Positions 12,443 to 17,573 are shown, counted from the stretch's first letter. The stretch: 24,000 nucleotides of DNA from Cyanobacteria bacterium P01_G01_bin.54 (GCA_039180005.1 JBCDEB010000012.1:10275-34274); one strand, 5' to 3'. Notes: generated by a model from the letters alone, not told the origin. Translations and numbers: made by a program.

Positions 12443-12474
12443 GGGGTTGAGTCCTTGGGCTCAGCCCCGTTTTG
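12443..12474 (+). terminator. Rho-independent terminator of rbcLXS
   Basis: GGGGTTGAG (12443-12451) pairs with CTCAGCCCC (12460-12468), including one G-U pair, around an 8-nt loop. GTTTT (12469-12473) follows, 25 nt after the rbcS stop. Confidence 0.6.
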
Positions 12475-12535
12475 GTTGGTCAGGGTAAGGAGCGATTGTT
12501 ATAGAATCGAGGGGTTGTTATCTGCAACAGCAAAA

Positions 12536-12838
12536 ATGCAAGGCGTACAATTTTTAGTCAATGGGTCGGGCGATCGCACCTCAGCGTTGATCGATTTAAA
12601 AACCCATGCTGAGTTTTGGGTAACCCTCCAAACTGGAACCAACTCTTCAAGCTGGAAATTTTTAACTGACGCACAGGGTCAGAAAATCGCGCTTGTGCTG
12701 GATTTAACGGATGAGGAAGATCAAGAACTTTGGGAAGATTTTTGTGATGGGGTGGCGATCGCAGCAGCAGCTCATGAGCCTCGTTTAAGCTGGGATGCAG
12801 CAAAAGCAGATTTAGATTCAGTAGCCACTCGTGTTTGA
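12536..12838 (+). CDS. Putative type II antitoxin (partner of the downstream RelE/ParE toxin), with an internally duplicated N-terminal module
   Basis: The gene overlaps the toxin start by 8 nt (GTGTTTGA, 12831-12838), a classic toxin-antitoxin arrangement. The segment WKFLTDAQGQKIALVLDLTDEEDQELWEDFCDGVAIAAAAHEPRLSWDAAKADL resembles the cyanobacterial antitoxin pattern of a beta-strand, an acidic helix, and then ExxxSxxEx. I prefer the ATG at 12536. The TTG at 12455 from the ORF track lies inside the rbcS terminator. Confidence 0.6.
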   Translation: MQGVQFLVNGSGDRTSALIDLKTHAEFWVTLQTGTNSSSWKFLTDAQGQKIALVLDLTDEEDQELWEDFCDGVAIAAAAHEPRLSWDAAKADLDSVATRV

Positions 12839-13094
12839 ATATCAGGTTACGATCGCCCGCTCGGCACAAAAGTCACTCACGAAACTGCCCCAGTCTGTGT
12901 GCGATCGCATTCTTGAACAGATTGATTACCTCCAGACTGAACCACGACCGTCAGGCGTTCGGAAATTGAAGGGTCAAACAAAAAGTTGGCGGTTGCGGGT
13001 TGGTGATTATCGAATTGTCTACGATGTAGATGATCAGGCTCGACAAATAGACATTGTAAGAATTCGCCACCGCCAGGATGTCTACAAACTTTAG
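12831..13094 (+). CDS. Type II toxin, RelE/ParE (mRNA interferase) family
   Basis: An 87-aa protein, MFEYQVTIARSAQKSLTKLP...ILEQIDYLQTEPRPSGVRKLKG...WRLRVGDYRIVYDVDDQARQIDIVRIRHRQDVY. It carries the RelE/ParE signature (A.K.L.KL, KL.G....R.RVGDYR..Y.I.D....I.I..I.HR...Y) and has a small overlapping upstream partner. Confidence 0.85.
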   Translation: MFEYQVTIARSAQKSLTKLPQSVCDRILEQIDYLQTEPRPSGVRKLKGQTKSWRLRVGDYRIVYDVDDQARQIDIVRIRHRQDVYKL

Positions 13095-13121
13095 GGTACA
13101 CAAGTTTTCTGGGGATCTAAG

Positions 13122-16100
13122 CTACGGCCTCCGAAAGGGCATTCTCGGTGGAGCAGTTTTCCACATCAGGTCAATTTCTTCGGGGGTGAGGCCGTAGGCC
13201 TGATTCACCAAATCAGAAATACGATGCTCTAAAGTCAACCCTTCAGAGCGGCGAGTTTGGATGGGGTGAGCATAGTCGCTGTAGGCTTCTTTGAGTTCTT
13301 TGAGCAGTTTAGGACCGAGGCTAACTGCGGCTTTGGGGCGACGTTTTTTGACTTCTTTAACAAAGTCATCCAAGGGCAAGCTGGCAAAGTCGCTGAGTTT
13401 GTTACCCGGTTTCTCAATGCCATGTTCAAGCCCAAGCCAGTCGAGGATGTCACGAGTCGCTTCTTGGTTAGCCTTGGTCATTTCGATCAGGCGTTGGACA
13501 GCGGGTTCGACTTCGGCACGGATTGCGTCGGTGGGTGGGGCGATGGGAAGTGTCTCGATGAACTGGGTGAAAAGCCTCAATGCTTCATCTTTTCCGTGCG
13601 ATGTGTTCCGCCACATATAAGCCCAAACGATTGGAGAATTGAGTACTCCAAGGAGATAGTGATTCCTGAGAGGAAGCATATAGGTCGTGTTGACCGATAC
13701 TGCTCCAGTCACATCAAAACTGAATTCTGGTCGCCAAGTAATGTCTGTATAGATTATCTTTGGATTGTCGAAGAATTTATAGTAAGCGCAGGGTCTCAAT
13801 TCCCACCAATAGTATCCTTGATCTTGCCTTTTTATGAGCTTATCTCTAAACTTAATGAGGTGTTGATAAATTGACGGATAAGTTCCTGAAAAGACTGACT
13901 CTGCATTATTATTGGACTCTTTCCATGGCCAATTAAAATCACTGCTTGACTTCAATAAAATCATCCATAATTGATTCCATTCTGGATGCCATCGGGACAA
14001 GTCCATCCCTCTTAGATAGGGTTTGATAATCTTTGATGCTTTCGGATCAGACTGAATGATTTCATCTTTTTTTCTGCCGTCAATAAGAAAAGCTTGATTG
14101 AATCCAGTTTTTATCCCCAAGAACGGTTTTTCACCAATCAAATCCTTCAAAAAAATTCCAGATACTCTCATATTTTCAAATAGAGCACTGACTTGAACAG
14201 GATCTAGACTCCAAGCTTGCTTATCAAAATTCAACCAAGGGATCTCATAACCTTCTTGATTTACATACTGTGGCAGGTTGATATTTTCCAAATGCTCCCT
14301 TGGCACTGGACAAATTTGCACAGATTCTGATACTTTCGGTTTCTCGGTCTCTTTCGCCCCCTCACCTTCCGGCTTCCTCACCGACACAATACAGGGAAAC
14401 ACATCCGCATCCACAAAAATTGGTGCATGACCGAAATCGATAATTTGCTCAAACACCGAGTTCTCAGCAAAAAACTTCCGCAACGGCTCCCCATAACCCG
14501 CCCGCAGCCACTTGTTCGTCACAATGTACGACAAAATCCCCTGAGGTCGCAGAATTTTTAGCCCTTTTTCGTAGAAGTAAACATAGATATCTGCCACCCC
14601 ATCATAAGCTGCATAATGTTCTTGTAGATAAGGCTTAAACGGCGTCAGTAACTCCTGGCGCACATAGGGTGGATTGCCAATCACCACATCAAAGCCACCA
14701 CTGACAAACACGTCCGGAAACGCCGCCTCCCAGTCAAAAGCGTAAGCATCCACATCCGGGTCAGCAATAATCGAATTGCCCACCTTGATATTGTCATCCA
14801 GATAGGTCAATGTCTTGCCGCGCTCCGCTGTTTTTAGCCACAGCGAGAGTTTGGTGATCTCCACCGACTCTGGTGATAAATCTACCCCATAAAGATTTTG
14901 ATTCAGAATGGTCTTGGTCAGGTCAAACAAGCTACGCTGACCCACCACTTGCCCTGATTTATCCTGCGTTTGCAGTGCCGCCAACCGCTCATTCACCGCT
15001 TCATACTTGCGACTGAGGAAATCAAACGCCGCAATGAGAAATGCCCCCGAACCACAAGCCGGATCAATCACCCGTGTTTGGGTCAGCACCTCATCCCGAT
15101 AACGTTCCCAAAACTCAATCTCTGCCACCCGCCGCTTGCGAACCGCATTCGCCCGAATCTGATCAATCCCGATTTCTGCCCAGAGCGCCTGTTCCTTACG
15201 CTCTAGATATTCACCCAGCGCCACTGCCACAATGTACTGCGTAATAAACGCTGGTGTGTAATAAACACCCTGAGTCTTACGACGCCCCTTCTTCTGGTCA
15301 TAGTCCTGATTCGCTGCCTTGGCTCGCAACTCTTCCAAATCCGATACCGATTGTTCAAAAATATGCCCCAGAATATTGACTGAAATCTCCGAGGCAAAGT
15401 CATAGCGGGTCAGGGTATTGAGCTGGCTACAGAGAACATCTGAAACCCACAATTGCTCATCCAAGAGCGGGTCATGAGCAAAAAGACCACCGTTATAGCC
15501 AGGGATCTCTAATGCACTGTTCCCCTTATCCACCGCTTGAAACACCGCCTTGAAATTATCCCAAATGCGGCGGGGATTATAGGGATCTTTATGGTCGTGG
15601 GCCTTTTGTAGTGTTTTCTCTGGCAACAAACCCCGGTCTTCGCAAAATGCAATGAACAAGATGCGATCGAGCACCTTCTGAGCAGCCGCGATCAGCGTGA
15701 TGTTGCGATTGTTCAACTCTGCTGGCCCAATATGCAGAAAATGTTTGGCTAGTTGTAGCCGTACCTGCTTATATTCCTCGTAGAGCTTTTCGGTGATGTC
15801 TTTATCTGCATTGGCTGACTCAATGAGCAACTGATCAATCCGCGATTTAGCCTTGGCATCAGCCGTTGGCGGCAAAAAATTCTCCCGACAGAGAATGAAG
15901 TAGAACCACTTGAAGGTTTCCAGATGGGTTAGGTCTTCGAGCCAAAACCACTCATAATAAGCTGGGGTCTTGCTGGTCTGGTAGAGTCGGATTTCTCGAT
16001 AATTTGACACGATCACCCAGCGACAATCCGGGGTGTAGTTGGCATAACGCCAGCCCTGATCCACCGCCGACTCATGGCGACCCGATACCGTGCGATCGAG

Positions 16101-16487
16101 GTCATTGGTCACGCCTTTGAGTTCAATAGGGGCAACGACTCGCCCCCAGAGCTTTACTTTGCCTGAATCCTCTGTTTTGGCATTAAAGAGTCCAATTGCC
16201 CCGTCTGCCGACCCTCCACCATCCGCAATGGTTTGCTCAGCATGGAGTTCCCAGCGATCGCCCTCAATAATGGAGCGGTAGCCCAACACCATTTGGAAAA
16301 TATCATTGAGGAACTGACCATGAAGCGAGACTTCTTTAATCTTGGTGAGCTTGCCTGACTGGAGTGAGGCGATCCACTCCTGTACCTTCTTGTGCTTATC
16401 CGCCAGATCGGCTGGAAAGACAAAGCCCTTGATCGCATTCTCAACACTCTTCTGGTTGAACAAAGCACCAGCATTTTTTCCAGACAT
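13122..16487 (-). CDS. Type IIG (MmeI/Eco57I-like, single-chain) restriction endonuclease / N6-adenine DNA methyltransferase with C-terminal target-recognition domain
   Basis: The N-terminal PD-(D/E)xK nuclease is laid out as in MmeI-type enzymes: D95 in SADGAIGLF, E122-L-K124 in APIELKG, then RWVIVSNYREIRLY. The gamma-class methyltransferase motifs are GVYYTPAFITQYIV (motif X), VIDPACGSGAFLIAAF (motif I) and VVIGNPPYVRQE (motif IV, nt 14661-14678). The C-terminal TaqI-like specificity-domain features are GIKTGFNQAFLI, KPYLRGMDLSRW and YYWWELRPCAYY. Confidence 0.8.
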   Translation of the reverse strand: MSGKNAGALFNQKSVENAIKGFVFPADLADKHKKVQEWIASLQSGKLTKIKEVSLHGQFLNDIFQMVLGYRSIIEGDRWELHAEQTIADGGGSADGAIGLFNAKTEDSGKVKLWGRVVAPIELKGVTNDLDRTVSGRHESAVDQGWRYANYTPDCRWVIVSNYREIRLYQTSKTPAYYEWFWLEDLTHLETFKWFYFILCRENFLPPTADAKAKSRIDQLLIESANADKDITEKLYEEYKQVRLQLAKHFLHIGPAELNNRNITLIAAAQKVLDRILFIAFCEDRGLLPEKTLQKAHDHKDPYNPRRIWDNFKAVFQAVDKGNSALEIPGYNGGLFAHDPLLDEQLWVSDVLCSQLNTLTRYDFASEISVNILGHIFEQSVSDLEELRAKAANQDYDQKKGRRKTQGVYYTPAFITQYIVAVALGEYLERKEQALWAEIGIDQIRANAVRKRRVAEIEFWERYRDEVLTQTRVIDPACGSGAFLIAAFDFLSRKYEAVNERLAALQTQDKSGQVVGQRSLFDLTKTILNQNLYGVDLSPESVEITKLSLWLKTAERGKTLTYLDDNIKVGNSIIADPDVDAYAFDWEAAFPDVFVSGGFDVVIGNPPYVRQELLTPFKPYLQEHYAAYDGVADIYVYFYEKGLKILRPQGILSYIVTNKWLRAGYGEPLRKFFAENSVFEQIIDFGHAPIFVDADVFPCIVSVRKPEGEGAKETEKPKVSESVQICPVPREHLENINLPQYVNQEGYEIPWLNFDKQAWSLDPVQVSALFENMRVSGIFLKDLIGEKPFLGIKTGFNQAFLIDGRKKDEIIQSDPKASKIIKPYLRGMDLSRWHPEWNQLWMILLKSSSDFNWPWKESNNNAESVFSGTYPSIYQHLIKFRDKLIKRQDQGYYWWELRPCAYYKFFDNPKIIYTDITWRPEFSFDVTGAVSVNTTYMLPLRNHYLLGVLNSPIVWAYMWRNTSHGKDEALRLFTQFIETLPIAPPTDAIRAEVEPAVQRLIEMTKANQEATRDILDWLGLEHGIEKPGNKLSDFASLPLDDFVKEVKKRRPKAAVSLGPKLLKELKEAYSDYAHPIQTRRSEGLTLEHRISDLVNQAYGLTPEEIDLMWKTAPPRMPFRRP

Positions 16488-16571
16488 AGTTTAATTGATT
16501 TGGCATTCTCCTTTTAGTCGATTGCTCAATTTTAATCTGCTTCGCCTAACCTAGGCTAAGGCAAACATCCA

Positions 16572-17387
16572 TCAAGCCTTGGTATAAACATAAGCTGTCT
16601 TGGTCGGCCCCGCCGTATCCACCCAATCCGGCAGGGCATCACCCAAGCGGCGAAGCACTTCATAGGCCCGCTGTGCCACTGCCCCCGCATAGTCTTCCTG
16701 CTCATTTTCATATTTAAAGCTAAACTCAACCACGATCGGTGCCTCGGCCGAATCAGCCGCATCATACCAAACTACTAAGGCACAGCTTGCTCTCACTTTG
16801 GGACGTTTGCCAATTTTCAACATTGCCCCCGTAATCACCAATTCTCGTGCCGTAAAATTGTTCACAATCTGGAGCGGTTCATCGGCTTGATACCCCGGTA
16901 GGCGGGTAGAAAGGTCAGGATAGAGTTTTCCGGGGTCAGCGAGGGTATTGAGTTTTTTACGCTCAGAAATGGGTTGTTTAGTCGAGAAGCTATAGAGTTT
17001 GAGAAAAGGTAATTTAATATCTTCTTCAAATTTTGTTTTGCCTTTTTTCCGTTTTGCGGCAGACATATCCCGATCTTGGGAAATATAGCGATCGGGATGA
17101 CGGTATTTAAGCGTCACTTCCCGTTCACGGGTTCTAAGATTGACCCGTTCTCGAAAAACATAGTTATTATTGCGTAGACGCTGATCACTGCTGTCATAGA
17201 AGCGAATGCTGCGTTCTTTTTCGATTTGATCTAAATTACCATCTGTGTCATACACCACATCTTCAATACTGTGCTTGAAATCGACCCAAAATGCTCCAGC
17301 CTGTTGGAGTAAGGTGGTTATTGAACCCATAAAGCGGATGCGTTGAAGCATGACTTTATATTCGCGTGAGATCACGTTTTGTTTCAT
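16572..17387 (-). CDS. CYTH-like (triphosphate tunnel metalloenzyme / class IV cyclase-like) domain protein of unknown function
   Basis: By-eye match to the CYTH beta-barrel pattern:
- REYKVML (degenerate ExExK; the first Glu is Ser).
- IRFYDSSDQRLRNNNYVFRERV (Q.YFDT.D..L...G..LRIR).
- EVTLKYR (LTLK).
- KFEEDI (R.E.E).
- IVVEFSFKYE (VEIE).
- a terminal TKT.
I prefer the ATG at 17387; the ORF-track start at 17438 is a TTG. The gene lies 84 nt upstream of, and co-oriented with, the type IIG gene. Confidence 0.5.
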   Translation of the reverse strand: MKQNVISREYKVMLQRIRFMGSITTLLQQAGAFWVDFKHSIEDVVYDTDGNLDQIEKERSIRFYDSSDQRLRNNNYVFRERVNLRTREREVTLKYRHPDRYISQDRDMSAAKRKKGKTKFEEDIKLPFLKLYSFSTKQPISERKKLNTLADPGKLYPDLSTRLPGYQADEPLQIVNNFTARELVITGAMLKIGKRPKVRASCALVVWYDAADSAEAPIVVEFSFKYENEQEDYAGAVAQRAYEVLRRLGDALPDWVDTAGPTKTAYVYTKA

Positions 17388-17573
17388 TGTTTCTCTACTT
17401 GGGTTGAACTTGACATTTTCTTTATAGATACGCTCCAAGACATATTTGAGTTTTTGGATGCTTATCTTTACATTATGACTTTCCCAAGGTTTTTGCCATC
17501 CTCCTCAGAACGTTTTCAGGTTGCTACGCCACTCTACGGACAACGACAACGCAGAGCGGGAGCGGATGGCACA

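Follow-up and report, generated by a model that had tools for sequence, protein, structure and literature searches.

We analyzed two adjacent genes in a 24,000-nucleotide stretch of DNA from Cyanobacteria bacterium P01_G01_bin.54 (GCA_039180005.1 JBCDEB010000012.1:10275-34274), which we call the window. On its minus strand, a gene for a 271-amino-acid (271-aa) protein with a predicted triphosphate tunnel fold (positions 16572-17387) lies upstream of a gene for a 1121-aa single-chain type IIG restriction-modification (RM) enzyme similar to Eco57I and MmeI (13122-16487). An earlier reading, made from the sequence alone (the sequence-only reading), proposed that these genes form a two-gene defense module in which a CYTH-like protein is paired with the restriction enzyme. 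Our analysis favors a different explanation, which we consider very probable: they are two independent accessory genes that lie head-to-tail by chance in a small, probably acquired patch of DNA, and neither protein needs the other. We favor independence because the pairing was not seen elsewhere, because no neighboring gene family is conserved, and because the type IIG enzyme appears to be self-sufficient. If true, a module of this kind would represent a new class of restriction system that is assisted by an accessory protein. Comparison across genomes speaks against it, and therefore there is no new defense system to record at this locus.

Gene neighborhoods of the two families

The layout of the two genes agrees with the sequence-only reading. 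The 271-aa open reading frame (ORF) begins with an ATG at position 17387 and ends with a stop at 16572, and the coordinates of both ORFs verify that its end is separated from the type IIG start by exactly 84 nt (16488-16571) on the same strand. As the start codon of the 271-aa ORF, the ATG at 17387 is backed by 44 aligned homologs that begin with the pattern M-x-x-x-V-x-SREYK. In the public annotation, its gene call (P0001) comprises 259 aa starting from Met13, and drops the conserved first beta-strand with its SREYK motif (17352-17387).

For a survey of gene neighborhoods, we used 80 genomic loci that each encode a homolog of the tunnel protein, most of them with ±10 kb of flanking sequence. 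None of these loci was matched by the window's type IIG protein using tblastn, nor by a hidden Markov model of 40 type IIG homologs that was used to scan 1,259 ORFs. No type IIG or N6-methyltransferase gene lies within ±10 kb of the tunnel gene at any of the 80 loci. Starting from the restriction enzyme, the loci of its six closest homologs (67-79% identity) have no tunnel gene, and no conserved upstream gene either. Three further loci that encode the closest relatives of the 271-aa protein have no RM gene; they carry transposase fragments and genes for a PemK toxin, ABC-F, FtsH and psbB.

All-against-all clustering of the flanking ORFs revealed no neighbor family in more than 9 loci, and Pfam scans of 77 upstream and 73 downstream neighbors found no family in more than 3. 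The families observed mostly have housekeeping functions (GNAT, GCV_T, CbiJ, MacB/FtsX and transporters), and PADLOC returned a handful of single matches among the same neighbors. Among the papers covered by a literature search, none links proteins of the CYTH/triphosphate tunnel metalloenzyme (TTM) superfamily to RM or defense systems. The proposed pairing of a CYTH protein with a type IIG enzyme thus occurs at 0 of 80 homolog loci, 0 of 6 type IIG loci and 0 of 3 further loci. Moreover, the homologs show no enrichment beside RM or defense genes, an outcome that the sequence-only reading had itself set in advance as counting against a module.

The tunnel protein and the type IIG enzyme

The 271-aa protein has no match in Pfam, NCBIfam or PADLOC, and sequence and profile searches of PDB gave only noise. 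Close homologs of about 270 aa number 617, and all but one of them are unnamed or described as "hypothetical" or "uncharacterized", and a profile search recovered 1,122 family clusters at 50% identity. These homologs come from cyanobacteria, Gammaproteobacteria, Actinomycetota, Acidobacteriota, Planctomycetota and others.

An AlphaFold2 model of the protein, built from 44 sequences, has 10 beta-strands (predicted local distance difference test score, 95.5; predicted template modeling score, 0.91). When this model was compared to PDB with Foldseek, the top 30+ matches were all CYTH/TTM proteins (probability 1.0, template modeling (TM) scores 0.4-0.57), and the best among them were HpAC1, YgiF, AtTTM3, thiamine triphosphatase, class IV adenylate cyclases and SaTTM. 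Matches in the viral database BFVD were CYTH proteins and the RNA-triphosphatase modules of capping enzymes (probability about 1.0). CYTH is also the only Pfam family that relatives of the 271-aa protein match recurrently, with sub-threshold matches in 2 of 44 close and 19 of 68 distant relatives (best E-values 4e-4 to 7e-4). An alignment with Escherichia coli YgiF using hhalign placed the block RFYDT..LR..FRER..TLKFR on YgiF residues 35-71, where the probability against this single sequence was 36% with one alignment of the family (A4) and 1.7% with another (A1).

The fold match, the conserved residues described below and the sub-threshold matches of relatives uphold the description of the protein as CYTH-like. 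A Pfam search and an AlphaFold model had been suggested as checks of this description; the model agrees with it, while the window protein itself has no match to Pfam CYTH (PF01928) at E <= 1. The predicted structure supports placing the 271-aa protein, a stand-alone polypeptide, in a widespread and unannotated clade of the CYTH/TTM fold. A sizeable and strongly conserved clade without annotation can thereby be assigned to a superfamily, and could receive a profile model of its own.

Two database records of homologs deserve mention. The homolog P0056 from Microbulbifer epialgicus (locus L014) is named "TIGR04255 family protein" in UniRef, and we set this label aside, as it was not reproduced in an NCBIfam scan of 44 members that included P0056 and was absent from our literature search. 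Another homolog (P0108, 49% identical) is encoded on a 100.8-kb contig in an assembly of the green alga Ostreobium quekettii, which could reflect horizontal transfer or bacterial contamination.

In comparison with characterized CYTH/TTM proteins (YgiF, AtTTM3, thiamine triphosphatase, CyaB and SaTTM), the 271-aa protein has the same antiparallel beta-barrel tunnel fold in its model, and shares a first strand of the form xxExK, an RxR strand, a KxR strand and an acidic ExD strand. In addition, its D-Y/F-D..L..R-x-R..T-x-K block aligns with that of YgiF. However, the TM-scores given above are just 0.4-0.57, and at about 270 aa the protein is longer than typical CYTH domains (about 170-210 aa), with extra helices at residues 23-40, 235-251 and 263-269. 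In the family, Ser also replaces the first Glu of ExExK, and the late strand is ExS where CYTH proteins have ExE. We know of no CYTH counterpart to its invariant C-terminal TKT motif.

The signature motifs of the window protein are SREYK (residues 7-11), FRER (78-81), TLKxR (92-96), KFEEDIK (119-125), EFS (221-223) and TKT (262-264). We determined conservation using 68 divergent representatives with 30-49% identity to the window protein. Among these, K11, D65, R79, K94, R96, E121, W207, S223 and K263 are invariant, and R8, E9, R81, K119, D123, E182 and E221 are nearly so. The sequence-only reading had observed that the first Glu of the ExExK motif is replaced in SREYK. This replacement is indeed present, and it is a trait of the whole family: position 7 is Ser in 43 of 44 close and 57 of 68 distant relatives and is never Glu, so SxExK does not reflect local decay. 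E9 and K11 are retained, although the full N-terminal ExExK is not, and the late strand reads ExS family-wide. We considered whether SREYK might mark a decaying pseudo-enzyme in this genome, and ruled this out because the motif is family-wide and under selection. Judging from these residues, the gene encodes a diverged tunnel-fold protein that is kept under selection and has an altered putative metal site (SxExK, ExS).

Charged residues (Arg/Lys and Glu/Asp) are conserved at alternating strand positions, whose inward orientation we infer from strand periodicity. The basic lumen residues K11, R79, R81, K94, R96, K119 and K263 would hold a triphosphate group, and the acidic lumen residues E9, D65, E121, D123, E182 and E221 would hold a divalent metal. 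The protein would then bind and hydrolyze a triphosphate-bearing substrate, such as tripolyphosphate, a nucleoside triphosphate or a 5'-triphosphate end. Its most likely activity would thus be to bind and hydrolyze a triphosphate group in a metal-dependent manner, a proposal in which both the substrate and the chemistry are inferred.

The downstream gene encodes a single-chain type IIG enzyme, as the sequence-only reading had recognized. A PADLOC model (REase_MTase_IIG, 6.7e-146) covers residues 48-1110, which is essentially the full length, and Pfam matches include Eco57I (2.9e-50), MmeI_Mtase, N6_Mtase and TaqI_C, as well as weak matches to MmeI_N and MmeI_hel. The chain carries, in this order, an N-terminal PD-(D/E)xK nuclease, a gamma-class N6-adenine methyltransferase and a TaqI_C-type recognition domain. 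In the nuclease, D95 and E122-L-K124 are invariant among 40 homologs, and so are DPACGSGAF (475-483, SAM motif I) and NPPY (605-608, motif IV) in the methyltransferase. Its relatives of solved structure are the CamA, BseCI and TaqI methyltransferases. The protein has the same nuclease-methyltransferase-recognition fusion as MmeI/Eco57I-type IIG (IIL) enzymes, including D..ExK, motif I and NPPY. We detected nothing unusual about it except a diverged recognition domain, and its relatives have no conserved partner gene. Because the nuclease, methyltransferase and recognition motifs are all intact, the type IIG enzyme is, as far as its sequence indicates, complete and self-sufficient. It would recognize a DNA site through the TaqI_C-type domain, methylate adenine through the NPPY motif and cut unmodified DNA with the D-ExK nuclease.

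One part of the type IIG gene, its target-recognition region (codons 701-1000, minus strand, 13488-14387), differs from the remainder. Codons 701-900 have a G+C content at third codon positions (GC3) of 0.38-0.39, compared with 0.50-0.59 in other parts of the gene. Residues 701-1000 are 32-61% identical to those of the nearest homologs, as against 80-97% over most of the protein. This suggests that the AT-rich block of the gene is a swapped or rapidly diverging target-recognition domain, which implies that the specificity may differ from that of the nearest relatives. Diverged or swapped recognition domains are common in restriction enzymes of this kind.

Two observations concern the surroundings of type IIG genes. 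At one locus (L082:683-14815), a 76%-identical homolog lies among genes for a TrwC relaxase, a Tn3-family transposase and an integrase, and insertion sequence fragments; at this locus, the gene family travels on mobile elements. In addition, small toxin-antitoxin-like genes are found directly beside the type IIG gene, namely RelB/ParE in the window, and DUF2281 or PemK at four of the six loci that carry the nearest type IIG homologs (L081:9408-9919, L083:9362-9912, L084:9198-9446 and L086:9429-9996). The gene families involved vary between loci.

Evidence against independence and alternative roles

Several observations weigh against the view that the two genes are independent. They share a strand and are only 84 nt apart, with no recognizable terminator between them and no recognizable promoter for the type IIG gene, and on this arrangement read-through co-transcription is possible. 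The sequence-only reading had seen no terminator in the gap, and a consensus scan likewise finds no terminator-like site there, nor a sigma-70-like site, although such scans cannot settle transcription in cyanobacteria; the RNA structure predicted for the gap region does not stand out (z = -1.8). Upstream of the 271-aa gene, the scan gives a sole sigma-70-like match (ATGGCA-16-CATAAT, minus strand, 17472-17499), which fits the consensus at 9 of 12 positions, carries no evidence of function and ends 85 nt before the ATG. The 84-nt spacer does not align with the DNA that precedes the nearest type IIG homologs, and therefore permits no statement on whether a promoter travels with the gene. Both genes also fall below the GC3 of the host, and hence could have arrived together. 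Further, our survey depends on mechanical ORF calls, and the Pfam and PADLOC scans cover immediate neighbors only. Finally, the tunnel family occurs beside nuclease or effector genes in some other lineages, and may have a conflict-related role that the neighborhood survey under-detects.

This last point concerns, first, five cyanobacterial loci at which a gene of the 271-aa family is the same-strand neighbor of an ORF of 640-750 aa (L024:3116-6357, L031:6468-9529, L038:7715-10792, L029:2260-5368 and L030:884-3844). In L024, L029, L031 and L038, the neighbor encodes a fusion of trypsin with Endonuclease_NS, i.e., a NucA-type DNA/RNA non-specific endonuclease, and the neighbor in L030 is tied to this fusion by BLAST clustering only. 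Both gene orders occur, and the loci belong to two sub-clades of the family tree.

Second, distant family members (26-34% identity) are present on rhizobial and Acinetobacter plasmids. In at least five records of rhizobial plasmids, a family member has within 7 kb a fusion gene related to those of the cyanobacteria (E = 1e-100), accompanied by PLD, patatin, pYEATS and CHAT genes. The surroundings on rhizobial plasmids include PLD, S1/P1 nuclease, trypsin-NucA, patatin, pYEATS, trypsin, caspase and CHAT genes (L170:7001-12637, L171:3730-8934, L169:1-7807 and L173:76-6858), and on two further plasmids family members are flanked by caspase-family and S8 peptidase genes. Overall, copies linked to trypsin-NucA are spread over at least three clades of the tree.

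Kaur, Burroughs, Iyer & Aravind 2020 (eLife, PMC7159879) predicted that operons with trypsin-NucA fusions act as a conflict system, and their description of the NucA-peptidase "System 3" does not include a tunnel-fold component. Family members elsewhere adjoin the fusions that define this system, but the link holds for about 6% of the genomic loci sampled, and the window has neither a trypsin nor a NucA gene. In line with this, tblastn searches of the window with the trypsin-NucA proteins of L024 and L170 gave nothing significant (best E = 0.011 over 47 aa). A further paper on nuclease-protease systems (PMC12799240) was set aside, as its nucleases have the MBL fold and are not NucA. A conflict-related role of the tunnel family is possible in view of these neighbors, and the linkage, seen in a minority of genomes, is a concrete and testable lead to the function of the clade. 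It is important to emphasize that adjacency to trypsin-NucA elsewhere gives no backing for a link to type IIG enzymes.

The alternative that survives best is that the tunnel family is a component or cargo of conflict islands and is independent of the type IIG enzyme, acting as an effector or as a regulator of nucleotide pools or signals. The position of the gene beside RM and toxin-antitoxin genes in the window would then reflect clustering within islands. The trypsin-NucA neighbors in at least three clades and the published prediction for such operons argue for this idea, as do transposases and toxin-antitoxin genes near the closest relatives and near the Acinetobacter plasmid copies. However, about 75 of the 80 genomic loci have unremarkable housekeeping neighbors with a handful of PADLOC matches, the GC3 of the gene follows that of the host in most genomes, and we found no phage homologs of the family. 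Moreover, the clade that contains the window's copy (L001-L015) has no NucA-linked member, and the published system does not list a tunnel component. We therefore regard this alternative as unlikely.

A broader form of the idea, which we judge distinctly unlikely, is that an undescribed SxExK clade (about 1,100 clusters at 50% identity, in many phyla) acts in biological conflict alongside nuclease effectors. Its members would, for example, generate, degrade or sense a triphosphate-bearing signal or nucleic-acid end. The effectors alongside them would be trypsin-NucA fusions in a part of the cyanobacteria and on plasmids of rhizobia, and in this genome the type IIG enzyme could conceivably take that place.

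A different possibility is that the 271-aa protein does not catalyze any reaction, and instead binds triphosphates or RNA 5' ends, the loss of Glu at S7 and S223 having abolished catalysis. The family-wide replacement of ExExK and ExE by SxExK and ExS is consistent with this proposal, and structures of RESC1/RESC2 are among the Foldseek matches (E = 4e-4 to 1e-2). The tunnel-fold RESC1/2 proteins hold the 5' triphosphates of guide RNAs. On the other hand, the protein keeps six acidic residues (E9, D65, E121, D123, E182 and E221), which is seemingly more than ligand binding needs, and its best fold matches are active triphosphatases and cyclases. We thus view a purely binding role as decidedly improbable.

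The lineage-specific module, in which a co-transcribed tunnel enzyme would modulate the type IIG enzyme, for instance if it produced or removed a nucleotide or polyphosphate signal, or if it processed 5'-triphosphate nucleic acid in the course of an infection, can draw on the shared strand, the short gap with no terminator-like or promoter-like site and the shared low-GC3 patch with a toxin-antitoxin pair, but it is highly improbable given that the pairing is absent from 89 other loci examined from either side, that the enzyme has every motif for acting alone while its nearest homologs have no conserved upstream partner, and that about one RM neighbor in 81 loci is what chance would produce in RM-rich cyanobacteria.

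Base composition and surrounding genes

The explanation that the two genes are independent includes the proposal that they lie in acquired DNA, which derives from base composition. The sequence-only reading had drawn attention to sharply AT-rich blocks in both genes. Its count of 17 G+C among 60 nucleotides at 16981-17040 is exact, and that at 16621-16680 is 38 rather than 37. GC3 is 0.44 in the 271-aa gene and 0.51 in the type IIG gene, compared with 0.58-0.69 in the flanking genes, and therefore the amino-acid composition alone, to which part of the effect had been attributed, does not account for the AT-richness.

Low GC3 extends to a toxin-antitoxin pair on the plus strand (12455-13094), which is convergent with the type IIG gene and consists of a RelB-like antitoxin (a weak match; GC3 0.41) and a ParE-RelE toxin (Pfam ParE_toxin, 6.7e-12; NCBIfam RelE_StbE; GC3 0.46). 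Four consecutive genes (RelB-like, ParE, type IIG and tunnel gene; 12455-17387) thus have GC3 values of 0.41-0.51 over about 5 kb, directly downstream of rbcS. This patch is bounded by the carboxysome/RuBisCO operon and a DUF3179 gene. Given the contrast with GC3 values of 0.58-0.69 in the flanks, the patch is probably DNA acquired by horizontal transfer.

At the patch, neither flanking repeats nor tRNA genes point to an insertion, and none of the 80 tunnel-homolog loci shows synteny with the window. Similarly, 80 metagenomic loci that encode relatives of the DUF3179 protein (at most 69% identity) have no other gene in common with the window. The 271-aa family gene is host-like in GC3 in most other genomes. 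The nearest relatives of the window's copy come from low-GC cyanobacteria. A joint arrival of the tunnel and type IIG genes is conceivable, but no other locus backs it.

The window as a whole is cyanobacterial in content, with genes for NDH-1 subunits, genes similar to ccmK, ccmL, ccmM and ccmN, and rbcL-rbcX-rbcS. At its start, a gene of the PNP_UDP_1 phosphorylase family (27-710) has a GC3 of 0.31, as opposed to 0.66-0.69 in its neighbors, and may be a second foreign gene.

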